Counted from the stretch's first letter, positions 1,090-17,898 are shown. The stretch: DNA of 20,889 bases from an uncultured Clostridia bacterium (GCA_937907055.1 CALCTW010000072.1:1-20889); one strand, 5' to 3'. Notes: generated by a model from the letters alone, not told the origin. Translations and numbers: made by a program.

Positions 1090-1788
1090 ATGAAGAAACT
1101 TTTATCCGTTTTACTCATCGCGCTCATCCTTGCCTCTGCCGGTGCCGTTGCCCAGGTCGAGCCGTATAACTGGCAGGATCAGATTGCTGTCGGTGACAAG
1201 GTGGATTGGCGTTCCATCCTGCAGTATTATCGCGATGATGATGATACGCGCCAGCTGATCTTTGTGAAATACACCGGCGGTTCCGAATGTGAGGTGCAGG
1301 TGTATATCAAGGATACTGCTCAGAATAACGCATGGACGAAGAGCCTGGTCTGCGCCGGTCTGGTCGGCCGAAACGGCGCGGGGCTGACTCATGAGGGCGG
1401 CGGAAGAACGCCGCTGGGTGTGTACGGCATCTCCACAGCCTTTGGCATCAAGGCTAATCCCGGCACCACAATGCCCTATATCGATGTCACACCCACCATT
1501 TATTGCTGTGATGAGGATACGGAGTACTACAACACCATCATCGATCTGAACGAAGTGGATCATGACTGCCACGGCGAATAGATGTTCAAATACAGCCCGG
1601 AATACAACTACGGCATGTTCATGGACTACAACGCAGAATGTACGCCCGGCAAGGGCAGCGCCATCTTCTTCCACTGCGACGGCGCGCGTGATTACACCGG
1701 CGGCTGCGTGGCCGTGAGCGAGGAAAACATGATATGGATCCTGCAAAATTGTGATTCCGGCGTAAAGGTTTGCGTGTTCAATAAGTAA
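1090..1788 (+). CDS. secreted YkuD-type L,D-transpeptidase family protein, one frame interrupted only by an in-frame TAG at 1579-1581
   Basis: A GAAGG RBS precedes ATG 1090. The signal peptide is MKKLLSVLLIALILASAGAVAQ. Under the standard code the gene splits into 1090-1581 and 1582-1788, which share one frame. The downstream piece carries the catalytic motif GKGSAIFFHCDGARDYTGGCVAVSEE (H...GC). It has no RBS and no signal peptide of its own. The final stop is TAA at 1786-1788. Confidence 0.8.
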
Positions 1789-2424: not shown

Positions 2425-4026
2425 ATGCGAACCGCACTTTTATTCAACTTCCTGATCGAAGCCACGATCATGGCTTCGATCGCGATCGTCCTGATGATGC
2501 TCCTGCGCAAGACGCTCCGCAATCCGCTTGGAAATAAGGCGATCTGCTTCGGCTGGCTGCTGATCGCGGCAAGATTGCTTCTGCCGATCAGCATTGTCAA
2601 TCCGTGGATCTCCTCCATCCGTTCGCCGTTTTCTTCGGATGCCGCCATTCGGCCCATCGCGGGGCAGATCGTTGTGCGCACACGCGATACGCTCTCCGGG
2701 GTCAGAGACCTGTTTTCTCAATCGGGAAATTCCGCGGGCACGGGCATGATGGATCGCGCCATCATGGAGATCGATTACGGCAATGCCGGGCTGATCCTGA
2801 TGCGCGTTTACCTGATCGGGATGGCGGCTGTACTCATATGGTTCATGATCCGCAATGTACAATTCCGATTGAAATTGCGCGCGGCCCTGATCGAGCCGGT
2901 TTCGGGAAAACTGCTGGAGCAGTACAGGGAAGTCTGCCTGCAAAGAGGTGTGAAGCCGATCCCGGTCATTTTCGCCGATCCTTTACCCAGTGCCTGCCTT
3001 GTCGGTGTGTTTCGTCCTTATATCGCGTTGCCGCTCACCGCTTCGCCAGCGGAGGTCATCCATGTGCTCACCCATGAGATCTGTCATCTGAAAAACAAAG
3101 ATCATCTTTGGAGCCTTCTGCGGTTGGCCTGCTGTGCGGTGCATTGGTTCAATCCTCTTGTCTGGATCGCGGCCGATATGAGCCGCACCGATACAGAGCT
3201 TCGCTGTGACGACCGCGTGGCGGCGCCGCTGAATGAGGAACAGCGAACGGCCTACGCCAATGTCCTTGTGCTTGCGGCGGCACGCCGAAGCGCGCCCGGT
3301 GTAGCGGTACTTGCGACCGGCATGACCATGACCGGCAAAAAGCTGAAGACACGTGTAATGACGGTCCTGCGCGGTGAACAAACGCACAGAGGGCTTGTTA
3401 TCGCGTTCTGCGTGCTGTCCACACTGTGTCTGATCTGCGCGTTCGCGACTTCTGAACTGCCGCTGCAGATCAGCAGACTGGGCACCACGGACGAAATGCC
3501 CCATTTTGTCACACAGGGCATGCAAGGCAATGTTCATCTGACAGACTCGGATGCCGCCGCGGCGTACGCGCTTGATCTGTGGCAGAATGTCCTCGGAGGG
3601 GCCGAGGCCGTTATCTCAGTAGATCCCTACGAAAATCGATATCAGGTACACGCGTTTGAAACTGATACCGCTGTGACATGGCAGATGCTCATGACCGATA
3701 CCGGGATCGTTGTCGATTATACGGCCTCATTCCCCGATCCGGACATCGCGAAGGACCTGAACGGGGAAAAACTGCAGGATCAGAAAAGCGAGATCAGTCA
3801 AGCCCGAGATTTCATGATGCCGCTCATTGAGCGTCTCGCCCCGGGGATCACCGGACGGATCTCCGAGATCTACAACGATTCCGTGACGGTCGTCGGCGAA
3901 GCGCATTATTTCTATTTTGTACTCAAACGCGCGGACGGGGATGAAAACAGCGCTTACGCGATCGTGCGCAAAGCGCCGGACAGCACCCTTCGCCTGATCT
4001 GGTTCTCAACGGAAGGGAACGGATGA
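2425..4026 (+). CDS. BlaR1-like M56-family membrane metalloprotease / signal transducer with a non-PBP extracellular C-terminal domain
   Basis: A GGAGG RBS precedes ATG 2425. The N-terminal part contains several hydrophobic TM segments and the HEXXH zinc motif in LTHEICHLKNKDH. After the last TM segment (VIAFCVLSTLCLICAFA) there is a ~190-aa domain. I could not recognise penicillin-binding SxxK or KTG motifs in it. The stop is TGA. Confidence 0.85.
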   Translation: MRTALLFNFLIEATIMASIAIVLMMLLRKTLRNPLGNKAICFGWLLIAARLLLPISIVNPWISSIRSPFSSDAAIRPIAGQIVVRTRDTLSGVRDLFSQSGNSAGTGMMDRAIMEIDYGNAGLILMRVYLIGMAAVLIWFMIRNVQFRLKLRAALIEPVSGKLLEQYREVCLQRGVKPIPVIFADPLPSACLVGVFRPYIALPLTASPAEVIHVLTHEICHLKNKDHLWSLLRLACCAVHWFNPLVWIAADMSRTDTELRCDDRVAAPLNEEQRTAYANVLVLAAARRSAPGVAVLATGMTMTGKKLKTRVMTVLRGEQTHRGLVIAFCVLSTLCLICAFATSELPLQISRLGTTDEMPHFVTQGMQGNVHLTDSDAAAAYALDLWQNVLGGAEAVISVDPYENRYQVHAFETDTAVTWQMLMTDTGIVVDYTASFPDPDIAKDLNGEKLQDQKSEISQARDFMMPLIERLAPGITGRISEIYNDSVTVVGEAHYFYFVLKRADGDENSAYAIVRKAPDSTLRLIWFSTEGNG

Positions 4027-4057
4027 CCGGATATCAGAATGTTCATACAGGAGAAAA

Positions 4058-5527
4058 ATGATGAAGAAATTTATATTTTGCGTTCTTATCCTATTGGCGG
4101 TCTTTCTGCCGGTCTGCGCGGTCTACGCGGAGGGCGGCTATATCGAGTTTATGCCGCAGGTCGTTGCGGATCAATTGGAAAAACTCGGTGTCCGCAAGGA
4201 AAACTATGAGGACATCGTGATCTTGGATCAGGTAGAAACCTCCGATTGCCGGTCTCATCTTTTTGTGCTGGCCGGTAATGACGGCACACATCACACCGTC
4301 TATCATTTCACCAACATCGAGACCGATGAAAACGCCTATCTTCACTGGGTATATCAGGCGTGCTATGATCAGCTGGCACCGCAGGGAGAAGGAACGGTTT
4401 GTTTTTACAGGCATGAGCATTATGACCGCTATGGTGAAAACGGAAATGTGCAGCTTTATGATGACCCCAATGGGTTCATGATCTATCGGATCGATCCCGA
4501 GGATCCCGAGACATATATTCAGGGCGTCAATGTGCATGTGATCGATCGGCAATTTCAGATCATGGCATGGTTTGACAAGAGCGTTTCCCCGGTCTGCAGC
4601 GCTTATATTCAGAATGGAAAGCTGCATTATGGTGATAACGAAACCGGAAAAAGCTATGGAACGGTGAAATTGTATCGTGTTTTTGATCTGAATGTCGCCT
4701 TCAGCAGTCTGCCCAAGACCTATCGGAAGGCTTCGGAGAAGTATACCGATCCTGCCGCGATCCCACACGGTGAACTTAAGGCGGAGCTGGTCAAATTCGT
4801 ATCAAACAAAAAGTACGCGGTTTATTCCGCACCGGATCAGAACTCGCTTCGGGCGGCCAAGGGAAAGGCTGTGGTTTCGACCAATGACTGGATCCAGGTA
4901 TTCGGTCGGGAGAAGGATTGGATCCTGATCCAATATGCCATCGATAAGGATCATTACCGCTTCGGCTATATTTCCGCCGACGCGCTACCCAAGAAAACCA
5001 CTGTGAAGCAGTTGGATCTTCGATATACAAGCGCGTATACGAAAGGCCGCGTATCGGTGACGGATGATCCTTTGTATTCCGGTGCTGAACTGGTCAGCCT
5101 GCCGGAAGGCAGCCGCGTGACATGGCTCGCGACGATGGGCGAATGGGCTTATATCGAGAGCAGTAACGGCGATCGGCTGCGCGGTTTTGTTCCGCTGTCC
5201 GCGCTTCGGACAGAACAGGTGTTTGAATTGCGGAACTATCCGGGTGAAAACGGCCCTGTGTATGACGGTGATCTGATCATCCGCGCCGATCAAACCTTCA
5301 GCGCGTCCTTCACGGTCGTGCAGTCCGGGCCGCTCGGTAATGCCGCTGTGTCCGCTGTGTTTTTGGTCGATCCTGAAGGGAACGCACTGGGGACAGCCGC
5401 GTTCGATGCGCGTGAGAACGATTTCTTTTGTACCGGTGTGATCGATGATTCCGTTACTGTCATCCGCTTCGTTGCCGTCAATGCGGACGGTGATCCGCTG
5501 GATCATTCCGTTTCTGTACAATGGTAA
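4058..5527 (+). CDS. secreted protein with two C-terminal SH3b-like repeats; N-terminal domain unknown
   Basis: A GGAGA RBS precedes the start. The signal peptide is MMKKFIFCVLILLAVFLPVCAVYA. SH3b-like segments include YAVYSAPDQNSLRAAKGKAVVSTNDWIQVFGREKDWILIQY...GYISADAL and RVSVTDDPLYSGAELVSLPEGSRVTWLATMGEWAYIESSNGDRLRGFVPLSAL. The stop is TAA. Confidence 0.75.
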   Translation: MMKKFIFCVLILLAVFLPVCAVYAEGGYIEFMPQVVADQLEKLGVRKENYEDIVILDQVETSDCRSHLFVLAGNDGTHHTVYHFTNIETDENAYLHWVYQACYDQLAPQGEGTVCFYRHEHYDRYGENGNVQLYDDPNGFMIYRIDPEDPETYIQGVNVHVIDRQFQIMAWFDKSVSPVCSAYIQNGKLHYGDNETGKSYGTVKLYRVFDLNVAFSSLPKTYRKASEKYTDPAAIPHGELKAELVKFVSNKKYAVYSAPDQNSLRAAKGKAVVSTNDWIQVFGREKDWILIQYAIDKDHYRFGYISADALPKKTTVKQLDLRYTSAYTKGRVSVTDDPLYSGAELVSLPEGSRVTWLATMGEWAYIESSNGDRLRGFVPLSALRTEQVFELRNYPGENGPVYDGDLIIRADQTFSASFTVVQSGPLGNAAVSAVFLVDPEGNALGTAAFDARENDFFCTGVIDDSVTVIRFVAVNADGDPLDHSVSVQW

Positions 5528-5563
5528 CAGAAATATGGACTTTGTTGCGACAAGGAGGTATCT

Positions 5564-7893: not shown

Positions 7894-9558
7894 ATGAAAA
7901 AGTTGATAATGAAGAAACCGATGATAAAAGAAAAAATGATCTTGCTGCTTGGGCTTCTGCTCCTGTTATTGCCGTTCACAGCCGCAGCAGAATCGAAAAA
8001 GGAGTGGGAATTGACGTGTGATGCCAAACTGGCGGAAAACACGACGATCTATGCGATCGATATCGCGGCGGATGGCACAAAATCGGCGCGGGCGATCGGT
8101 TCTCTTCCGGCGGGTACCTATTTTCGGGTCAACAGCAAAGGGTTTGATGAAGAACTGCAGCTGAAGATGATCCGTTACTATCAGAATGGCGAGCAGAGCG
8201 CTTATATGGCGCGTTCCGCTCCGATCGCCAGTGCTTCCAAGATCATCTGGTTTACAGACGGCACGATGACACATCTTCCGGAAAATGTTGTGGCGGATCC
8301 GGCTGAGTTGCGTTCCTGGCTGAATACCACCTGCCCCGGGCATACGGTTTACGCCATTTCCAATGTCGGACAGGCCAGTCCACTTGAATTTCCTCAGACC
8401 TTTGACGGCACACAGACGACAATTCTCACCTCAGATCAGGCTGCCGCTGTGAATCCGGGCGGAACGCCGCGTCCGTACACCGGCGGCACCGCGAAGGATC
8501 CTTCTGTCAACACATCCGGCTATGTGGAAGGGGAGTGGAACATCAGCACAGAAATCTCTGCTGAAGAACAGGCCTTCAATGCGTCTTGTCCTCATCGCCT
8601 GAAGCGTACGGTCTGGGGCTATTCCGATGCGCATATGACGAGCAAATACGAGAAGATCAATATCGGCACCTATGTGAATATCATGACTGATTTCAACGAT
8701 GTCGTGAAGATCGCCTATTATAAAAACGGTGTGCGCCATACCGCATATGTTGAACGCGTGGATCTTCTGGGGGCTTATACGCAGTATGTTGATCGTCAGG
8801 GAAACGCGCAGACAGTCTATACCGGAGATCCCGATTATGAGGCCATTCTTTCCGGCTGTGAGGTGACCTTTCAGGCAGAGTCCATCACTCAGGGGTTGGA
8901 CACACTGGTGGCAGAAGAGCAGAACAGGAAAAACACGCCTGCCAAAGCTTCTGCTGAATCGAACGGAGCTGCCCATGCTTCGCAGGAGGCCGCAAGCACG
9001 GCATCCGGGAGCGAAGGTGAAAAAGTGGTCGTGAGCAGAGTCGGGGTCTCCACCACAATGATCGCGTATCAGGGTGAAACGATGGAAGTGCGCACCGCGC
9101 AACTTACCTTCAGCAAAAATGTGCCTTCATAGCATAAGGTGGCGGTCATCTACGCGCCTAAAACAGGAAAATGCACATTGCGAAAGAGCGCGTCCACCTC
9201 GTCCGCTGCATTGAAGAAGTGTAAGGCCGGTACGGTCGTCATCGTACTGGAACAGGGCGATAAAACCTGTAAGATCAATGTGAACGGCACCACTGGCTAT
9301 GTGCTGACCTCCTGTCTCAGATTTTATGACGCGAATACGCCCCTTTTGGGGGATGGCCAATTGTCCTATAATGGCAAAACAACGGGAAGAACTACCGTCA
9401 ATGTGCGCAATACACCGGAAAAGGGCAGTGCTGTCATCGGTGATTGGAAAACCGGCACGCAGGTGCAGGTCTTTTCACATGAAAATGGCTGGTATGAGAT
9501 CGAGTATCAGGGTATGCATGGCTATGTTCAGGAAAAATACCTGAATTTTGAGGAATAA
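7894..9558 (+). CDS. secreted multi-SH3b-repeat protein, one frame interrupted only by an in-frame TAG at 9130-9132
   Basis: The signal peptide region is MKKLIMKKPMIKEKMILLLGLLLLLLPFTAAA. Under the standard code the gene splits into 7894-9132 and 9139-9558, which share one frame. The downstream piece (HKVAVIYAPKTGKCTLRKSASTSSAALKKCKAGTVVIVLEQGD... and TVNVRNTPEKGSAVIGDWKTGTQVQVFSHENGWYEIEYQGMHGYVQEKYL) is two classic SH3b repeats. It has no ATG, no spaced RBS and no signal peptide. The final stop is TAA at 9556-9558. Confidence 0.78.
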
Positions 9559-9609
9559 CATGCCGCTTCAGTTTTTACATGTGCCGTCCTCTCTTGCATT
9601 CTCTATCGG

Positions 9610-9653
9610 TTGACAACCTGTTCTGAAAGACATACAATACTCATGATCATGAG
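9610..9653 (+). promoter_or_regulatory. sigma-A type promoter followed by a perfect 14-bp palindrome (candidate operator)
   Basis: TTGACA (9610-9615), a 17-nt spacer, then TACAAT (9633-9638). The palindrome CTCATGATCATGAG (9640-9653) sits at about the transcription start, 60 nt upstream of the VanW-family gene. Confidence 0.6.
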
Positions 9654-9713
9654 ACTGGGTCTTTTCGTGATTTTTCGCCTCATCTCCCGGTCTCCGCGAA
9701 AGGAAAACACTGC

Positions 9714-10685
9714 ATGAAACGTTTCCTGTCTCTGCTGCTCATTTTGTTCCTTCTGCCGCTCAGCGCGTTTGCCGCGCCGGACCCGCAGGCATTGTATGTC
9801 TGCAAATCCGCGCGGGATTTTCATCTGCGCGATAAGCCGGACGGACGTTTTGTGGAATCGGTTCCCGATGCCAGCACCGTCTATATTCTGGAATGGCCCG
9901 CGGAGGAGGAATGGGTCTATGCCAGCTATAAAGGGCAGCGCGGTTATGCCAAGCTGGCCTGGCTGTATCAGATCCGCTCGCTGGATCCGGCCAACGCGCC
10001 GCTTCACAATGTGCCGAATGCCGTGGAAGGCATGCTAGTGCTGAAGGAGCAGGTGCTCATCAAGGCCGGTGATTATGAGGGCACGCTGCTGGAGGCTGGC
10101 GATACCGTGTGCGGCCGCCCGGACGGCGAGGGCAATTACATCGTTCCCGTATGGCGGAGCGAGCTGATCCTCACTTCCGAACAGGCAGATTTTGTGCCTT
10201 TTGCCGATCCTGCCGAGGCGGAGCCCGGCGATGTCATCGGTGCCTTCACCACCTTCTACGGCGATCAGCAGGGGAAGGGCAAGGCCAAGGAACGCGAGTT
10301 CAACATCATGGAAGGTTCTGTCCGCACTAATGGCGCCACCGTGCAGCCGGGGGAGTCATTCTCCTTCAACGCGCTGTGCTATCCCTATTCCAAAAAGAAC
10401 GGCTATCAGCTGGCCCCAAATATCAGCAAGAAGGGCACGGGCTACGGCGGCGGCATCTGCCAGTTTACCACCACGCTCTATAATGCCCTGCTGACCACCC
10501 CGCTGCTGATCACGGAATGGGCGGTGCATCGCTATAATGGTGTGGCTTACGTGCCGCAGCTCTTTGATGCCGCGGTCGGTGATTATTCCGATCTGGCCTT
10601 CACCAACACTCTCTCTTATCCTGTCAGGCTGGACTCCACAGTGGAGAACGGCGTGATCAACACCTTTATCGTTCGGGCGGATTGA
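9714..10685 (+). CDS. VanW-family protein with an N-terminal SH3b-like segment, secreted
   Basis: The signal peptide is MKRFLSLLLILFLLPLSAFA. The SH3b-like segment is FHLRDKPDGRFVESVPDASTVYILEWPAEEEWVYASYKGQRGYAKLAWL. The VanW signature is GTGYGGGICQFTTTLYNALL. The stop is TGA. Confidence 0.85.
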   Translation: MKRFLSLLLILFLLPLSAFAAPDPQALYVCKSARDFHLRDKPDGRFVESVPDASTVYILEWPAEEEWVYASYKGQRGYAKLAWLYQIRSLDPANAPLHNVPNAVEGMLVLKEQVLIKAGDYEGTLLEAGDTVCGRPDGEGNYIVPVWRSELILTSEQADFVPFADPAEAEPGDVIGAFTTFYGDQQGKGKAKEREFNIMEGSVRTNGATVQPGESFSFNALCYPYSKKNGYQLAPNISKKGTGYGGGICQFTTTLYNALLTTPLLITEWAVHRYNGVAYVPQLFDAAVGDYSDLAFTNTLSYPVRLDSTVENGVINTFIVRAD

Positions 10686-10819: not shown

Positions 10820-10985
10820 CTGTTTTAACAATTTTGTAACATATCAAGCTGAATTTGTCCCCTGTAAACCGGACACGGGAAAGCATCTAAATCGCAGATA
10901 CCGGATGTTATCTCCCGGTTCGTCAGCATGCGACCTGATCGGATCAGTACACTTTGGCATCTGTGTGCATAACGATCAGCTTACC

Positions 10986-11354
10986 CTATGAACCGTCCTC
11001 GTTCCTTATGCCTCCTTCGATCCGTAATCTGTATTCGCCGTTCACGATACCGCTTATCCCGCTTGCAGCCGCGTTTCCGACAAATTGAAGATCGTCCCAT
11101 GTGCAGACTGTGATCCATGATCCGTACACGCGCTTTTGCAGCATGATCCGAATAAAGCTGCCCGTCTGTTTCTGGTCATAGGGCACGATCAAACCGTAAA
11201 TGATAGCATTGAAGTCGCGCAGATCCATATATCCGATGCATTTGTACAGACTATCATAAACGGGATGCTTTTCTGACACTTCACAAAGAACGTTTACGTT
11301 GATCGAAGACATGAGCAGCAGGATCAATAAGAATATCGCAATGATCTTTTTCAT
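10986..11354 (-). CDS. small secreted protein of unknown function (ends at TAG; in-frame extension possible to 10944)
   Basis: An AAGGAG RBS lies 7 nt before ATG (11354-11352). The signal peptide is MKKIIAIFLLILLLMSSINVNVLC. The ORF stops at TAG (10988-10986). Reading through adds GKLIVMHTDAKVY and then TGA at 10946-10944. Confidence 0.6.
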   Translation of the reverse strand: MKKIIAIFLLILLLMSSINVNVLCEVSEKHPVYDSLYKCIGYMDLRDFNAIIYGLIVPYDQKQTGSFIRIMLQKRVYGSWITVCTWDDLQFVGNAAASGISGIVNGEYRLRIEGGIRNEDGS

Positions 11355-11365
11355 AACCAAGCTCC

Positions 11366-12130
11366 TTATTCTTCTGAAACGATGTGGTGAACACTCTGCG
11401 CGATCTGAATGGCGTTTTCAAGATCAATCGGGGATGATACGACAAACCATTTATCATCAACACTCCAGATGATCGTGAACATATTGAATGTGCCCTCTTT
11501 TATTTCGCATTCCTTCTCGATCACAAAAGCCGGATTGCCATTCAGGGTCATATTTGACAGTTGTGCTTCTTTTATGTCTATCAGAAGGTGCGTGTTATCG
11601 TCACATTCATCATAGGAAACGAAACCGGAATTGTCGTTGGAAAAGAGCATTACATTTTTCCCGGTTTCTGATACCCATATCCTATCATATTCCGCCGGTG
11701 TGAAGGCCGGATAGTATTCACCTTTGTAACCTGAGGGCACAGTGAAAACATCGGTAGGTTCAAGGTGAATATTGGCGTAGCCGGAATCAAGACTCATCAC
11801 CAGATTCATGATACTGCTGCGGATATAAGGGTTGCTTGCAACAGCCACAGGTACACCGATGAGGATCCCCATCAGCAGAACGATGATAACCGACATGGTT
11901 TTAACAAGGCGGCTCGTATGTGCGCTGTTTATTCTGTCTGTGTCCGGAGAACGTTTGTCCGAAGCCCGTTTCATCTTCAACCATTGTTGATGCGTGAACT
12001 GAATGGGGGTGATCTCTTCGGCTGTTTCTGTATCCTCGTCCGGGGGTTCGGCTTCATTGATCAGCGACAGACGGATCAATTCGTCCCAAAGCTGATCTTC
12101 TGAATAATCTATTGTTCTTCTTTTGATCAT
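11366..12130 (-). CDS. single-pass membrane protein, DUF4367-like putative anti-sigma factor
   Basis: The start ATG overlaps the stop of the upstream sigma gene (ATGA at 12130-12127). The layout is a cytoplasmic N-terminal region, one TM segment (MSVIIVLLMGILIGVPVAVA), then an extracytoplasmic domain. This is the usual arrangement of Clostridial sigma/anti-sigma pairs. The stop is TAA. Confidence 0.65.
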   Translation of the reverse strand: MIKRRTIDYSEDQLWDELIRLSLINEAEPPDEDTETAEEITPIQFTHQQWLKMKRASDKRSPDTDRINSAHTSRLVKTMSVIIVLLMGILIGVPVAVASNPYIRSSIMNLVMSLDSGYANIHLEPTDVFTVPSGYKGEYYPAFTPAEYDRIWVSETGKNVMLFSNDNSGFVSYDECDDNTHLLIDIKEAQLSNMTLNGNPAFVIEKECEIKEGTFNMFTIIWSVDDKWFVVSSPIDLENAIQIAQSVHHIVSEE

Positions 12131-12687
12131 TCCGCGTCAACCTCCTCCTGTATTTTGATTTGAATCAGCTTCCGTGCGCGTCTGATATATTGATTGATAC
12201 TGTTCGGTGAAAGGCCTGTTCGCTTTGCGATCTCTCGATTGCTCATTCCCAGGATCAGCTTCATACGAAATATCATTTTCATGCTGTCGGGCAAAGCCTG
12301 AACAGCATGCTGCACGTGATTTATCAGTTGCTTGTTTTCAAACACTTCCATCGTGCTGACAGAAGTTTCGTTTAACTGCAATTCTTCCACATTGATGACT
12401 GTCTTTAACTTTCCGCGCTGGGTATGCATGGCGATGGTATCAAGTGAAGTGTTTTTGACAGTTGTCAGTATGTATTGCTTCAAACTTTTTGCAGGCAGTT
12501 TCTTTAATTGATCAATGCGCCTGAATAACCGGACGCAGCTTTCTGAAACAGCATCCTATTCCAAACAATACGCACCGGCATATTTTCTTGCGATCTTCAG
12601 CATGTCGGATCCGTATGTTTCGTATAATTGTTCCATATACAGAATGCTTTCATCATCCTGTGCAGGATCTAAAAACAGCAGTATCAT
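12127..12687 (-). CDS. sigma-70 family (ECF-like) sigma factor, one frame interrupted only by an in-frame TAG at 12558-12556
   Basis: The standard-code ORF 12127-12483 encodes only regions 3/4 (LPDSMKMIFRMKLILGMSNREIAKRTGLSPNSINQYIRRARKLI) and begins at a TTG. The same frame continues upstream: MILLFLDPAQDDESILYMEQLYETYGSDMLKIARKYAGAYCLE[TAG]DAVSESCVRLFRRIDQLKKLPAKSLKQYILTTVKN. This supplies region 2. ATG is at 12687-12685, with AAGGAG 12 nt upstream. The stop is TGA. Confidence 0.72.
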
Positions 12688-12945
12688 TGCCGGGTGTTAC
12701 TCCTTTCGGTAACAAGGTTATCCCTATTCACTATTATATACGATTCTCGTATCAGATCTGTGACTTGTTGGATCGCATTATGTAAAATTTCAGGGAAACT
12801 GTCACATTTCCATGGCAGAATAAGTATAATAGATGAGAACAGCAGTAATTGCATCTTGAAAGGAGGGATTGTGAATCCGATCCTGCTGAAGTTCTCATAC
12901 GAAAACCGCTTGACTTGTAAAATAGCGGAGAGAAGAGGAGAATAC

Positions 12946-13512
12946 ATGAAAAAGGGTGTATTTGGAATTGTAGTTCTTTGTTTGTTGACAATATGTTCAT
13001 TTGCTTATGCGGATTGCAGTGTTTGTGGTGGTAACAACAAAACAACTGTTAATCGTCCGACAAAATGGATTGATGATATTGTTTTTGATACTCATACTCA
13101 ATATTATGTGGTTGACTCTTATTGCGCAGATTGCGGAAATTTTTTAGAAAGCACAACGAAAGAGTACAGAGATAGATCATATGCGCATATTTGGAGTATT
13201 GAATGTATTAACATTACATATCACAATGATACCAACTATCATTGGAAGGAGGGAAAACGGATTAAGCGATGTGAAGCATGCAATAAAATGATTACACTTG
13301 ACGAAAATGTGATCTATGATTCATAGTCTCACTATATGTCATCTTCTTATTTTGAAGATGCAGGGCATATTGGTGCACGACATTACTATGTAGTTATCTG
13401 TGGTAATGTGCATTGCAGTCGTTACTATACGATTTCTATTCCGTGTAAAGGCGGTTCTACACATGTCGCACCACTGTCTGTTGATCCAAATCCCAATACT
13501 GATATACAGTGA
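12946..13512 (+). CDS. small secreted Cys-rich (CxxC-repeat) protein, one frame interrupted only by an in-frame TAG at 13324-13326
   Basis: An AGAGGAG RBS lies 5 nt before ATG 12946. The signal peptide is MKKGVFGIVVLCLLTICSFAYA. Motifs are CSVC, CADC and CEAC before the TAG. After it, 61 more sense codons (62 codons counting the TGA stop) repeat the same theme (HYYVVICGNVHCSRYY versus the earlier QYYVVDSYCADCGN). The stop is TGA at 13510-13512. Confidence 0.68.
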
Positions 13513-13533
13513 TGTATGAAAGAGGTGTCGAAA

Positions 13534-14181
13534 GTGAAAAGGCATGTCGTTTTCTTACTGTGCTTGCTTTATCTTTTTTTGCTTGGCACAGCATTTGCGG
13601 ATCCTGTACCTGCCGATGATGCGCTTGAAAAATAGTTGCGTTATATTGCGGAGATATGGATGGGGGACATCATACCGGAGGAATAGTGCTTTACCGAGAC
13701 TACGGTAAAAGATGAACAGGGGAATACACTTGATGTCGAAGCATATTTATGTTAGGACAAAGACGAAACTACAGGTCAGGAGTATCTTCTGTTTGCGAAA
13801 ATATAGGAAAACAAGACCTCACTGCTCAGAATTTACTTGAACCATCAGAGAATCGAACCTGAGGTGGATGAGACTGCGGCAATTGATGCAGAAACCGCGG
13901 CGAGGCTTTTTTTGCGGATATGCGAACAGAATGAAGCCTTTGGTAACAGAGGTGATATGACACATGAACAATTCTTAAAAGAATGCGATTGCGAACTCTT
14001 TTCACCGGAACAAATGCGGTATACAGATCAGTCATTATGGACAAGCGTCCTGAAAGTTAACGGAACAGAAGGCAGCACGATTGTGGAACTTCTGTGGGAT
14101 GCATCAACGATGAGCATCGAACGTGTTATGTTGATGACAGAATCCCCGGATTCGTTTGCTTTCATACACTTAATGAGGTAA
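13534..14181 (+). CDS. small secreted protein of unknown function whose frame contains four in-frame TAG codons
   Basis: An AAGAGG RBS lies 8 nt before GTG 13534; an in-frame ATG at 13516 is an alternative start. The signal peptide is KRHVVFLLCLLYLFLLGTAFA. The frame is a 215-codon frame plus its TAA stop, with no internal TAA or TGA in AT-rich DNA. TAG codons are at 13633, 13684, 13753 and 13804. The standard-code ORF track shows only 13837-14181. The stop is TAA at 14179-14181. Confidence 0.65.
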
Positions 14182-14298
14182 ATGTGAAGGAACACGAAAT
14201 ATACGATCGACAGATATTGCGTTTGACAGCAATGAGGTTTGAAGTACACATATCTGAATCCGGATTCTCTTGCTTTGAGAGGAAGCCTGTATATTCGT

Positions 14299-14342
14299 AA
14301 AAAACCGAGCCCCCGATGCCGTCTGTTCGGCGTCGGGGGCTC
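14299..14342 (-). terminator. rho-independent terminator of the SulP gene
   Basis: On the minus strand, GAGCCCCCGACGCCG-aacaga-CGGCATCGGGGGCTC is followed by GGTTTTTT. Confidence 0.85.
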
Positions 14343-14363
14343 GTGCTGATCACATATGGATCT

Positions 14364-16067
14364 TCAGTTTTTATCATCCTGCGCGGCGAGGATCGCTTCG
14401 GCACGGGTGAAGGCGGCATCGATATTGGGGCAGAAGTTTTCCGCGCCCACTTCCTCACGGAAGCCGTACTTGACCATGGTCAGCATGGGCTGCTCGTTTA
14501 CGTGAGAGAGCACCAGCGTGATCCCGGCCTTCTTGCACTGCTCCTGCAGGTTCTGCAGCGCGATCATGGCGGTCACATCCAGCGAGGGCACGGCGCGCAT
14601 ACGCAGGATCAGCACCTTGGTCACATCACGGGTGGTGATCTGGTTCAGTCTGTCGGAAACGCCGAAGAACAGCGGGCCGCTGATCTCATACACGCGCACA
14701 GCCTGCGGCACGTCGCGCAGCTCCTTGCCGTTTTCATCGGTCTTTTCGTCATAGTGCCAGTTCTTTACGCTGAATTCGCTGGTCAGATGCTTCACCAGCA
14801 GCACCAGCGCGGCCACCAGGCCCACCTCGATGGCGACCACCAGGTCAAATACCACCGTCAGGATGAAGGTGATCACCAGCACCAGAATATCGGCCAGAGG
14901 AGCCTTCTTTACGATCCTGACCACGGTACGCCAGCCGCTCATGTTATAGGCCACCTGGAACAGGATGGCGGCAATGACCGGCATGGGGATCATGGCAGCA
15001 TAGGGGATGAGCAGCAGCAGCACCAGCACCAGCACCAGCGCGTGCACGATACCGGCAATGGGGGTGCGGCCGCCGTTCTTGATGTTGGCCGCGGTACGGG
15101 CGATGGCGCCGGTGGCGGGGATACCGCCGAACAGCGCGCTGCCCATGTTGCCGATACCCTGCGCGATCAGCTCCTGATTGGGGTTGTGCTTGGCGCCGAT
15201 CATGCCGTCAGCCACCACGCAGCTCAGCAGGCTCTCAATGGCCGCCAGCACCGCGATGGTCAGACCGTCGCTGAACTCGGCGCTGATCATATCAAAGGAC
15301 AGGGCAGGGAAGTGGAAGGCGGGCAGACCGGGCTCAATGGTGTACAGGTCGCCGATCGTCTTGACAGGCAGACCGGCCAGCTTGACCACCAGAATACCGG
15401 CCACGACCGCGATCAGGGAGCCCGGGATCGGGATCTTCTTGCAGATCTTCGGCCAGAAAATGAGGATCAGCAGCGCGAACACGCCCACCGCGACAGCCCA
15501 CAGATTGATGGAGCCGATGTTTTTAAAGAAGACCACCAGCTTTTCCACGGTCTCCACAGGCTTTTCGGCATAGGTGACACCGAAGAAATCCTTAAACTGA
15601 CCGATCAGGATGGTCACGGCGATACCGGCGGTGAAACCGGTGGTGATCGTGAACGGGATGAACTTGATCAGCGAACCCACGCGGCAGAGGCCCATAATGA
15701 TCAGCAGCACACCGGCGATGATGGTGGCAATGATCAGACCGTTCATGCCGTTCCGGGCGATGATCCCGGCTACGATGGTGGCAAACGCGGCGGTCGGACC
15801 GGCGATCTGCACCTTGCTGCCGCCGAAGAAGGCAATCAGGAAGCCCGCGACGATGGCAGTGTAGATACCCTCCTGCGGGCCCACACCGCTGGCCAGCGCC
15901 AGCGCGATGGAAAGCGGCAGCGCGATGATCGCGACGATGATGCCGCTGATGATGTCCCGGGAGAGCTGCTTGCCGTTATAGCCCTTCATGCTCAGGAACA
16001 GCTCCGGAATCAGGGGCTGCTTCTTCTCACCGGAAGTCTTGGTCTTTTTCTTGTTCAGGATGCTCAT
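14364..16067 (-). CDS. SulP-family inorganic anion (sulfate/bicarbonate-type) transporter with a C-terminal STAS domain
   Basis: The long ORF has many TM segments and SulP-like sequence (GIIVAIIALPLSIALALASG, GGSKVQIAGPTAAFA). The STAS-like C-terminus is VRVYEISGPLFFGVSDRL...VLILRMRAVPSLDVTAMIALQNL. I chose the start ATG at 16067-16065 (MSILNKKK...) because a GAGGGG RBS precedes it. The ORF track start at 16154 has none. The stop is TGA. Confidence 0.9.
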   Translation of the reverse strand: MSILNKKKTKTSGEKKQPLIPELFLSMKGYNGKQLSRDIISGIIVAIIALPLSIALALASGVGPQEGIYTAIVAGFLIAFFGGSKVQIAGPTAAFATIVAGIIARNGMNGLIIATIIAGVLLIIMGLCRVGSLIKFIPFTITTGFTAGIAVTILIGQFKDFFGVTYAEKPVETVEKLVVFFKNIGSINLWAVAVGVFALLILIFWPKICKKIPIPGSLIAVVAGILVVKLAGLPVKTIGDLYTIEPGLPAFHFPALSFDMISAEFSDGLTIAVLAAIESLLSCVVADGMIGAKHNPNQELIAQGIGNMGSALFGGIPATGAIARTAANIKNGGRTPIAGIVHALVLVLVLLLLIPYAAMIPMPVIAAILFQVAYNMSGWRTVVRIVKKAPLADILVLVITFILTVVFDLVVAIEVGLVAALVLLVKHLTSEFSVKNWHYDEKTDENGKELRDVPQAVRVYEISGPLFFGVSDRLNQITTRDVTKVLILRMRAVPSLDVTAMIALQNLQEQCKKAGITLVLSHVNEQPMLTMVKYGFREEVGAENFCPNIDAAFTRAEAILAAQDDKN

Positions 16068-16125
16068 GGTGTACCCCTCAGTGTATACACGATTCACGCG
16101 CGTACGCACGCGCGCGGCGTCCGTT

Positions 16126-16154
16126 ATTATAGCACCAAGCTTTCCCTCAAACAA
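16126..16154 (-). promoter_or_regulatory. candidate extended -10 promoter for the SulP gene
   Basis: The minus strand reads TTGTTT, a 17-nt spacer, then TGcTATAAT (TATAAT = 16131-16126). Confidence 0.45.
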
Positions 16155-16664
16155 TCACACAATTCTGGTCATTTTTTCGCCATATCCGTGGTTCTCCGGG
16201 CGCGTTTTCCTGCCGGGATCCTGATCCCTTTTCGTCGCGTCGGTTGCTTCAGCGTATCCCGGATCGCGCGTCATGCAGCGTTGCTCTGATCAGCGGCGGT
16301 TTGAGGATAGGAATGATCCTTTCAATCGATTCCGTGCCGCCGCAGACCTTGACCTTATTCTGATGATGATAAACGGAGTATCCCGGTACCGCGTGAGATC
16401 GCACATCGTCATCGGCACGTCCTTGCCCGCGCGTTGCTCCCGGTGAAGATCTTTTCATCCGGCCGCGGATCGCTTTACCCGGAAGCATCTGTTCTTCACG
16501 ATCATGGGGGAGGTCTCGTGCTCCCCATTCCGTTCACCTCCGTTTACCCACCTCCCAGATCCATGCTGTATACCGCGGCCGATTGATCCGGCTGTTTTCT
16601 GTGATCCTGTATGCGCTTTTTCCCGGATTTTCAGGGCTTTTGCGTGCTGATAAATGAACTCTTC

Positions 16665-16754: not shown

Positions 16755-16831
<77 letters not shown>

Positions 16832-16834
16832 TAT

Positions 16835-16911
16835 GGCTCCGTAGCTCAGCTGGCTAGAGCATTCGGTTCATACCCGGAGTGTCATCTGTTCGAATCAGAT
16901 CGGAGCCACCA
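16835..16911 (+). tRNA. elongator tRNA-Met (anticodon CAU), CCA encoded; lysidine-modified tRNA-Ile2 not formally excluded
   Basis: The cloverleaf has acceptor GGCTCCG/CGGAGCC, D-arm GCTC-AGCTGGCTA-GAGC, anticodon stem TTCGG/CCGGA with loop TTCATAC, and T-arm ATCTG-TTCGAAT-CAGAT. Confidence 0.85.
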
Positions 16912-16914
16912 TTT

Positions 16915-16987
16915 GGGGCATTAGCGCAGTTGGTAGCGCACAACACTGGCAGTGTTGGGGTCAGGAGTTCGAATCTCCTATGCTCCA
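16915..16987 (+). tRNA. tRNA-Ala (anticodon GGC), no encoded CCA
   Basis: The cloverleaf has acceptor GGGGCAT/ATGCTCC containing the G3:U70 alanine identity pair. The anticodon stem is CAACA/TGTTG with loop CTGGCAG, and the T-arm is AGGAG-TTCGAAT-CTCCT. The discriminator A is followed by TAA. Confidence 0.92.
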
Positions 16988-16992
16988 TAAGC

Positions 16993-17118: not shown

Positions 17119-17898
17119 GTGAGGACGAAATACCCTATCGTGCTTGTGCATGGACTTGGCATGAAAAGCCTGCCTTTTCTGCGCGCTTTCGGCCGTATTG
17201 ACCGCATACTGCGAATCCAAGGATATACGGTTTATGTGAGCCGCATTGACGCTATGGGCTCTGTCGAAACGAACGCACAGAAGTTAAAAGAAGAGATTGA
17301 TTCCATCCTTCTTGAAACCGGCTCCAAAAAAGTCAACATCATCGCTCATTCCAAGGGCGGACTTGACGCGAAGTATATGATGAGCGCGCTTGGAATGATG
17401 GAGCATGTCGCATCCTTTACCACGCTTTGTACGCCTCATGCCGGTTCTCCCATCGCTTCGTTCGTACTTCGCTTTCCAGACATACTGCTTCGTTACGCAG
17501 CTTTCTGGGTCAACTTCGCCTATCGTATTTTAGGCGACAAGCATCCCGACTGCTTGGCAGCGTGCCGTCAGCTTCGCCGGGTTTCGGGCAATGAAAAAAC
17601 GGAATTGCAGGGCGTGTTTTGCCAAAGCTTCTCTTCTGCCATTTCTGAGAAGGAGAAGCATTTTGACTTCGTGATGGGAATTCCCGCGTTTTTGTCACGC
17701 ATGATTGAGAAGAATTCTCTTACGGACGGACTCGTTCCGCGCGATTCCGCCGTCTTCGGGCAATACCGTGGCGATTGTATCGACGGTTCGGTCAGTCATA
17801 CGGAAATCATCGACTTCATGGTGCGCGACAAATACCGGGATCGCGTATTTACATTTTATTCCACTCTCTGCGAAGAACTGTCAAAGATGGGATATTAG
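17119..17898 (+). CDS. alpha/beta-hydrolase, lipase/esterase-like (GxSxG-type nucleophile elbow AHSKGG)
   Basis: An AAGGAG RBS precedes GTG 17119. The N-terminus YPIVLVHGLGMKS (oxyanion-hole type) and IIAHSKGGLDAKY are typical of small bacterial lipases. The ORF ends at TAG 17896-17898. Here TAG looks like a genuine stop (see findings). Confidence 0.75.
   Translation: MRTKYPIVLVHGLGMKSLPFLRAFGRIDRILRIQGYTVYVSRIDAMGSVETNAQKLKEEIDSILLETGSKKVNIIAHSKGGLDAKYMMSALGMMEHVASFTTLCTPHAGSPIASFVLRFPDILLRYAAFWVNFAYRILGDKHPDCLAACRQLRRVSGNEKTELQGVFCQSFSSAISEKEKHFDFVMGIPAFLSRMIEKNSLTDGLVPRDSAVFGQYRGDCIDGSVSHTEIIDFMVRDKYRDRVFTFYSTLCEELSKMGY

Follow-up and report, generated by a model that had tools for sequence, protein, structure and literature searches.

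How does the cell read an in-frame TAG that cuts the gene of a YkuD-fold enzyme in two ahead of its catalytic residues? The question is raised by positions 1090 to 1788 of a stretch of 20,889 nucleotides from an uncultured Clostridia bacterium (GCA_937907055.1 CALCTW010000072.1:1-20889), hereafter called the window, by which the whole stretch of DNA analysed is meant. An original prediction, made from the sequence alone, had pointed to a TAG at 1579-1581 that splits an L,D-transpeptidase upstream of its His...Cys motif. The answer favoured here is that UAG is translated as glutamate in this lineage of uncultured Clostridia, the TAG of the YkuD gene included (probability about 0.75), because the in-frame stops are always TAG, the corresponding alignment columns hold glutamate, the codons downstream are under selection and TAG is depleted as a terminator. 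The elements of the gene on which the argument builds are the following.

1090-1788, plus strand: gene of the YkuD fold (L,D-transpeptidase/carboxypeptidase family), a single frame of 232 codons with TAG as codon 164 and a terminal TAA
1090-1155, plus strand: signal peptide of the YkuD protein, residues 1-22, sequence MKKLLSVLLIALILASAGAVAQ
1579-1581, plus strand: the in-frame TAG, putatively glutamate, with GAG/GAA in relatives and TAG in six haplotypes
1672-1707, plus strand: catalytic His195...Cys206 motif HCDGARDYTGGC, 3' of the TAG, its columns nearly invariant (alignment A1)

One reading frame and one predicted fold

Around the TAG, positions 1567-1593 of the window read TGC CAC GGC GAA TAG ATG TTC AAA TAC. 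Taken at face value, the gene consists of an open reading frame (ORF) of 163 amino acids (1090-1581) which ends in TAG, followed by an ORF of 68 amino acids (1582-1788) which starts in frame with ATG and ends in TAA, with His195 and Cys206 (FFHCDGARDYTGGC) located 31 and 42 codons 3' of the TAG. When the two parts are joined, the protein of 232 amino acids matches the Pfam YkuD family (PF03734) with 34.2 bits, the curated cut-off being 23.4 bits, and the match, over residues 91-227, runs across the TAG, which together with the sequence confirms that the TAG divides one YkuD-family gene. Uninterrupted homologues have a corresponding length of 229-232 amino acids.

The structure predicted by AlphaFold2 for the read-through protein consists of a single domain with a mean predicted local distance difference test score (pLDDT) of 88.6 and a predicted template modelling (TM) score of 0.83; near residue 164 the pLDDT is about 93. 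As modelled, the read-through protein is one confident YkuD-type fold, the outcome for which such a model had been proposed as a check. The expectation that neither half works alone is likewise supported; the catalytic piece of 68 amino acids lacks a signal peptide. The best Foldseek matches of the model are Csd6 (4xzz), Pgp2 (6xj7), Ldt-fm and Bacillus subtilis YkuD. The L,D-carboxypeptidases Csd6 and Pgp2 and the Ldt L,D-transpeptidases have the YkuD fold and the His/Cys motif in common with the window gene, but the relationship is distant (TM about 0.44, 16-19% identity), and the enzyme may be a transpeptidase or a carboxypeptidase.

Selection on both sides of the TAG

The triplets GAA TAG ATG are present in all six distinct nucleotide haplotypes of the YkuD gene, which derive from independent assemblies (the window, L001, L002, L084, L100 and L101; the L085 haplotype is identical to that of L084), and the fragments of 163 and 68 amino acids recur across many independent assemblies. 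As the TAG is kept in six haplotypes of independent origin, it is not a sequencing error. Between the haplotypes, the N-terminal part of the gene differs by a proportion of synonymous differences (pS) of 0.14-0.22 and a proportion of non-synonymous differences (pN) of at most 0.012; the mature N-terminal part has 33 synonymous versus 5 non-synonymous polymorphic codons among the six haplotypes. The 68 codons 3' of the TAG have 8 synonymous versus 2 non-synonymous (K/R and I/K) polymorphic codons. The signal peptide, with 3 synonymous versus 6 non-synonymous polymorphic codons, is the only region of the gene that evolves fast. Without translation of the 68 codons, about three in four changes would be expected to be non-synonymous under neutrality, and a binomial estimate for two or fewer non-synonymous changes among ten is about 4e-4. 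The scarcity of non-synonymous changes therefore argues that the part 3' of the TAG is translated and under selection.

These data bear directly on the reading of the gene as a pseudogene, according to which the YkuD gene was inactivated by a nonsense mutation, the remaining TAGs of the lineage being decay of the same kind. A change of GAG to TAG is, taken alone, an ordinary nonsense mutation, and intact copies of about 90% identity are found elsewhere (L086-L088). Nevertheless, a dead gene is highly improbable in view of the purifying selection 3' of the TAG (8 synonymous, 2 non-synonymous), the restriction of in-frame stops to TAG, the recurrence of the same pattern in six variants of a housekeeping peptidase described below, and the lack of secondary lesions in haplotypes that have diverged to the pS given above. 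No further stops or indels were seen in the YkuD gene of the six haplotypes, so that the degraded copy that would have spoken against the original prediction did not appear.

No signs of a restart after the TAG

The ATG that directly follows the TAG invites a second alternative, in which translation terminates at the TAG and re-initiates at the adjoining ATG to give two polypeptides that act separately or assemble. Yet the methionine encoded by this ATG is ancestral in the family, in which the alignment shows GE[EH]M, and has not newly evolved as a start. The pairing with the anti-Shine-Dalgarno sequence 5' of ATG 1582 amounts to -2.1 kcal/mol, so that the ATG has no Shine-Dalgarno sequence, and the energies of -7 to -13 kcal/mol at true starts contrast with -2.1 to +0.6 kcal/mol at post-TAG starts; as judged from these duplex energies, a Shine-Dalgarno sequence was not found before the post-TAG pieces of the TAG genes in the window. 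Re-initiation would also leave the catalytic piece without a signal peptide, and the other TAG genes, one of which has four TAGs, offer no usable restart codon with a Shine-Dalgarno sequence. The chance that stop and restart account for the gene is thus close to negligible, in agreement with the original prediction, which had treated it as a merely formal alternative; relatives that encode two pieces, each with its own ribosome-binding site, were not seen. Read from these comparisons, the YkuD gene is neither a dead pseudogene nor a split gene.

The residue at the TAG column of YkuD

In the relatives with about 90% identity (P0124, P0129; L086-L088) the site reads GAA GAG ATG, and in a relative with 80% identity (L003) GAG GAA ATG, while more distant homologues have E or H in the column. 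The alignment with full-length YkuD homologues that had been suggested as a check consequently places glutamate (or histidine) at the TAG column, with GAG/GAA in the closest sequences. The TAG is one G-to-T step away from GAG. It would have arisen from GAG through this single change. With UAG read as glutamate, the change would be synonymous or nearly so, and this would explain why the TAG persists under purifying selection. Ribosomes would then read the TAG as a sense codon and produce one secreted YkuD-fold enzyme of 232 amino acids with Glu164.

The uninterrupted YkuD copy (L086 1949-2647; also L087 and L088) lies in another neighbourhood, with genes for TraX, Lgt and a protein of 1858 amino acids that has a weak PI-PLC-X match. 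L086-L088 come from the same studies as the TAG form, and their copy may be a paralogue or that of a sister species.

Further in-frame TAGs in the lineage

Eight further in-frame TAGs are present in the window, on the plus strand at 9130, 13324, 13633, 13684, 13753 and 13804 and on the minus strand at 12558 and 10988. With the one in YkuD, all nine in-frame stops are TAG, and none is TAA or TGA. The original prediction had held that the phenomenon is not confined to the low guanine-plus-cytosine (GC) islet, and the TAGs at 9130, at 10988 and in YkuD do lie outside it; the identity of the residue (glutamate), the reach into a housekeeping peptidase and the depletion of TAG as a terminator go beyond what had been foreseen. 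The genes concerned in the window, and the one site that varies between strains, are:

2767-2769, plus strand: GAG (Glu126) of BlaR1, TAG in L101 (haplotype comparison)
7894-9558, plus strand: secreted protein with two C-terminal SH3_3 domains, TAG at 9130-9132 (codon 413), homologues span the TAG
10944-11360, minus strand: small secreted protein, TAG at 10986-10988 with a TGA 13 codons further on, either a sense TAG close to the end of the gene or its true stop
12127-12687, minus strand: sigma-70 factor of the extracytoplasmic function (ECF) type (Pfam Sigma70_r2 and r4_2) in the low-GC islet, TAG at 12556-12558 (codon 44)
12964-13512, plus strand: Cys-rich secreted orphan protein, TAG at 13324-13326, frame without TAA or TGA
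13516-14181, plus strand: secreted orphan protein with four TAGs (13633, 13684, 13753, 13804), no in-frame TAA or TGA

Homology extends past an in-frame TAG in five genes, namely those for YkuD, the SH3 protein, the sigma factor, BlaR1 (in L101) and the Xaa-Pro aminopeptidase PepP. For BlaR1 the two codons can be observed side by side, as the site reads ATG GAG ATC in the window, L001, L084 and L085 and CGA TAG ATC in L101, which is a direct GAG/TAG polymorphism between strains. New TAG codons may accordingly still be arising from GAG. In L101 (metagenome-assembled genome GCA_045628485.1 at NCBI), positions 2635-4236, the in-frame TAG causes BlaR1 to be annotated as two genes of 114 and 401 amino acids.

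The gene pepP is located on a syntenic contig of 65.6 kb (L084/L102) and is called with 390 amino acids, ending on TAG. This TAG aligns with the glutamate of GIRIED (the 'RIED' motif) in PDB 3ig4 and 1a16 (Escherichia coli PepP), and the alignment continues for 30 residues past the TAG up to the normal C-terminus. All six sequence variants stop at the same ...GIGFRL and carry the TAG. The glutamate of the RIED motif serves as a metal ligand in M24B peptidases. With glutamate inserted, the predicted tryptic peptide of PepP that spans the TAG is LEDNLLVTEDGCENLSAAIPR. Directly 5' of the TAG-containing aminopeptidase gene, L102 has at 8770-10267 a gene for a fusion of a TPM domain with barnase, followed by barstar.

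In the sigma factor, the TAG aligns with the E of an 'AED' motif in six of the seven homologues, which were retrieved by tblastn against plasmids and include sigma/DUF4367 gene pairs of Flavonifractor and Clostridioides; the window has the same arrangement, a sigma factor gene followed by a DUF4367 anti-sigma-like gene. A homologue search prior to tblastn had returned the query's own fragment only. The TAG is kept in L089-L091. E. coli RpoE, which was found as a PDB match, has proline at this position but does not possess the AED motif and is thus uninformative on the column.

For the SH3 protein, full-length homologues of 509-515 amino acids cover the TAG in one stretch of alignment, with nine D, five E, four G and one S in the column. 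Its TAG is kept in L084, L089 and L101, and 3' of it the window and L084 differ by 6 synonymous and 1 non-synonymous changes. A neighbouring protein of 573 amino acids, considered as a paralogue, turned out not to be paralogous and is uninformative on the TAG column. The small secreted protein (10944-11360) has its TAG in L084 and L089 as well, and there were no homologues from which to tell a sense codon from a stop. No homologues were found for the Cys-rich orphan (12964-13512), nor did a homologue search return any for the four-TAG ORF. L089 and L090 retain each of the four TAGs of this ORF, and a good Shine-Dalgarno sequence precedes GTG 13534.

Cumulatively, the TAG columns hold glutamate in the four clear cases (YkuD, BlaR1, sigma factor and PepP) and D/E in the fifth (SH3 protein). 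Of the codons in the TAG-bearing genes that are a single step away from TAG, 16% are GAG, and four clear glutamate cases out of four have a chance probability of about 7e-4. Internal TAGs amount to about 2.4% of the glutamate codons (GAA, GAG and TAG) of the window. The remaining in-frame TAGs of the lineage would be decoded in the same way.

This pattern also bears on the proposal that UAG stands for pyrrolysine or for another amino acid than glutamate. UAG encodes pyrrolysine in some anaerobic Bacillota, in one archaeal code every TAG is pyrrolysine (bioRxiv 10.1101/2024.09.30.615893), and ARAGORN labels any tRNA with a CUA anticodon as pyrrolysine tRNA. With the glutamate columns, among them an invariant metal ligand, the direct GAG/TAG polymorphism, TAG-carrying genes that are unrelated to pyrrolysine biology, and no methylamine methyltransferase or pyl gene in the approximately 60 kb of lineage sequence read, such decoding is very unlikely.

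Two apparent signals did not hold. An A at position -1 precedes eight of the nine in-frame TAGs, but the window's TAG trinucleotides taken together have it in 60% of cases, so that it is not significant as a context signal; an apparent TGA in the VanW gene of L089 was an alignment artefact. The low-GC islet itself (11315-14254), which comprises the DUF4367 anti-sigma-like gene, the sigma factor and the two secreted orphans, is an insertion by comparison with L084, where no more than about 107 bases occupy the site; three of the four islet genes carry in-frame TAGs. Positions 12940-13536 constitute a further indel inside the islet and are absent from L089 and L090.

TAG as a terminator

The terminal stops were counted in 42 non-redundant genes, taken from the window and about 39 kb of the 65.6-kb contig (with the dcw cluster, ftsA/ftsZ, an EF-G paralogue, groESL and the pyruvate phosphate dikinase (PPDK) gene). 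About 24 of these genes end in TGA, 17 in TAA and 1 in TAG. In related Clostridia, represented by 80 related loci of 45-60% GC, TAG is the stop of 43 among 252 long ORFs (17%), and against this baseline one TAG in 42 genes is a significant depletion (binomial P = 0.0037). TAG would thus be nearly gone as a terminator in the lineage, and the exception is:

17896-17898, plus strand: TAG of a lipase/esterase gene (17119-17898), the only one at a natural C-terminus among the 42 genes (alignment with solved lipases)

Near-cognate read-through of UAG mostly inserts glutamine, tyrosine, lysine or tryptophan. If termination at UAG were simply leaky, such tRNAs would read the codon rarely and a trickle of full-length product would suffice. 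Belinky et al. 2021 (PMC7918605) propose this as a general account of conserved in-frame stops in bacteria, where they report that such stops with low dN/dS occur widely, and the TAG that still ends one gene is also consistent with it. Insertion of an amino acid other than glutamate would, though, kill the peptidase at its metal-ligand position, and a gene with four TAGs would give almost no product; in addition, the restriction of in-frame stops to TAG, the glutamate columns and the depletion of TAG terminators would all be unaccounted for. Leaky termination is therefore a rather improbable explanation.

Proposed decoding agent and genomic setting

Decoding of UAG as glutamate would most simply have as its agent a tRNA with the anticodon CUA that is charged with glutamate. 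Such a tRNA could be a derivative of tRNA-Glu or, in an organism whose Gln-tRNA arises by transamidation, a derivative of tRNA-Gln that is left unamidated, and release factor 1 (RF1) would be lost or outcompeted. UAG is probably decoded by a Glu-type tRNA(CUA). The window holds no suppressor tRNA; at 16755-16988 it has a cluster of tRNA-Met, tRNA-Met and tRNA-Ala(GGC).

A Glu-type tRNA(CUA) was found in a metagenome, on the minus strand of the Joint Genome Institute (JGI) contig Ga0209723_1014892 (L169, 3157-3234). Its D-arm TCGTCTAAAGGCCCAGGA and anticodon stem match tRNA-Glu, it directly adjoins a tRNA-Gln(CUG), and ARAGORN labels it as pyrrolysine tRNA; by its sequence it looks like a natural Glu-type amber suppressor. 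It was retrieved with a guessed pattern of the tRNA-Glu anticodon arm combined with CUA, the other matches to which were mostly random, and the contig's three genes have TAA, TAA and TGA as their stops. L169 shows that a Glu-type tRNA(CUA) is possible in nature, with no link to the lineage of the window.

Core chromosome, with the dcw cluster, groESL and PPDK, surrounds the TAG genes, and the genome, at about 52% GC, looks ordinary in its gene content. The best match of the PPDK, about 93-94%, is to metagenome-assembled genomes of Clostridia. A scan of GTDB genomes found no close relatives of the YkuD gene, and no GTDB species representative shares the synteny of the window. Among 80 Clostridia PPDK loci, with identities of up to 93%, none had shared synteny and none had in-frame TAGs in conserved genes. 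A crude scan for TAG-containing ORFs gave antisense noise only.

A further alternative has to be weighed against this setting. Suppression may be conditional, with a chromosome that uses the standard code and TAGs that are read only when a suppressor tRNA of a mobile element or phage is expressed, which would place the envelope genes, sigma factor and peptidase under a translational switch. TAG-recoded prophages with their own suppressor tRNAs occur in Oscillospiraceae and Prevotella (Borges et al., bioRxiv 10.1101/2021.08.26.457843), most of the TAG-bearing genes encode secreted or envelope proteins or regulators, and one gene retains a TAG stop, all of which fits. However, the known phage code specifies glutamine, and the columns here hold glutamate and never glutamine; no relatives of the YkuD or sigma factor genes were found in viral contigs; the neighbouring genes are those of the core chromosome; and the depletion of TAG as a terminator in core genes implies that exposure to suppression is constant rather than occasional. 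Conditional suppression thus appears unlikely.

Two further features of the window concern gene content. A gene for 489 amino acids at 4058-5527 (window 4042-5534) without a Pfam match is present in the window, L001 and L101 and absent from L084 and L085, and represents a strain-variable insertion between BlaR1 and the gene of the 573-amino-acid SH3 protein. An ORF of 657 amino acids on the plus strand (14316-16289) is an antisense artefact of a SulP/STAS sulfate permease gene (14364-16154, minus strand).

How far a reassignment would extend

Several observations weigh against the reading of UAG as glutamate. In the lipase gene (17119-17898) the terminal TAG coincides precisely with the end of solved homologues, which a full reassignment does not explain, and the protein has 259 amino acids in 10 of 10 cluster variants; the next in-frame TAA or TGA lies 129 junk-looking codons past this TAG, antisense to a convergent response-regulator gene. 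This suggests either that UAG still terminates partly, with RF1 kept and ambiguous decoding, or that a tail is tolerated. Five of the TAGs are in orphan genes without homologues from which the columns could be judged. A tRNA(CUA) was not found in the approximately 60 kb of lineage sequence read, prfA, the gene for RF1, lies outside this sequence, and all the evidence, which is comparative, comes from it.

Translation of UAG as glutamate remains the best explanation of the YkuD TAG, and as one lipase gene still ends in TAG, the decoding may be ambiguous. A full reassignment of UAG from stop to glutamate, with a Glu-type tRNA(CUA) and RF1 lost or disabled, which would constitute a new bacterial code, is put forward tentatively, its chances being somewhat short of even.

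Implications

The accepted variants of the bacterial code are, to our knowledge, only TGA reassignments (to tryptophan and glycine) and a few sense-codon changes, and we know of amber reassignments to a standard amino acid in phages and protists, not in cellular bacteria. No report of a bacterium that reads TAG as glutamate was found in the literature searched, and a screen of 2.7 million assemblies in 2026 gave no bacterial TAG reassignment (10.64898/2026.04.02.715157). A full reassignment, if true, would be the first case in bacteria in which amber has come to specify a standard amino acid, and a free-living gut Clostridia lineage would provide the natural counterpart of the engineered amber-recoded E. 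coli. As GAG and TAG are polymorphic between strains, codon capture would have been caught in progress, and there would be a bearing on the incompatibility of codes between phage and host. On the practical side, standard-code gene calling truncates or splits the TAG genes, so that databases hold YkuD fragments of 163 and 68 amino acids and a peptidase of 390 amino acids without a catalytic residue. Because the genes are broken in this way, gene calls and the quality and pseudogene measures that depend on them are probably affected for the lineage.

Relation to known recoded systems

A close setting is that of code 15 in gut phages and prophages (Lak, crAss-like, Garnet, Topaz), in which TAG is likewise read in frame as an amino acid, in that case glutamine, by phage suppressor tRNAs. 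Shared are the gut community, including Clostridia hosts, the enrichment of TAG in particular gene classes and a tRNA(CUA) as the presumed agent. In contrast, the genes here are chromosomal and bacterial, with PPDK, groESL and the dcw cluster as neighbours, glutamate stands in place of glutamine, and viral relatives were not found; with a core bacterial context and no TAG column that holds glutamine, the locus does not belong to phage code 15.

With respect to the amino acid, the nuclear codes 30 and 31 of peritrich ciliates and Blastocrithidia, in which UAR (UAA and UAG) is read as glutamate, resemble the present case of UAG, and the dual role of UAA in Blastocrithidia, which doubles as stop, is reminiscent of the lone TAG-terminated lipase gene. 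Those codes belong to eukaryotes with eukaryotic release factor 1 (eRF1) and a poly(A)-dependent context, and UAA changes along with UAG, whereas the window is bacterial, only UAG is concerned and TAA is a normal stop.

In pyrrolysine decoding, known from anaerobic Bacillota and archaea, UAG is translated in organisms that may also stop at UAG, as may be the case here. Pyrrolysine is tied to methylamine methyltransferases and needs pylTSBCD, while in the lineage of the window glutamate columns are found in unrelated proteins. The in-frame stops described by Belinky et al. 2021 (PMC7918605) are, as in this lineage, kept with low dN/dS on both sides, but were proposed to reflect occasional read-through of any stop, in contrast to the one codon, the one amino acid and the terminator depletion found here.

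Among cellular bacteria, codes 4 (TGA as tryptophan) and 25 (TGA as glycine) provide the precedent for a lineage-wide reassignment of a stop codon that is accompanied by depletion of the terminator, as in the present lineage. These codes involve TGA, the loss of release factor 2 (RF2) and reduced or low-GC genomes, whereas TAG is the codon concerned here, and the genome, at about 52% GC, has an ordinary gene content.
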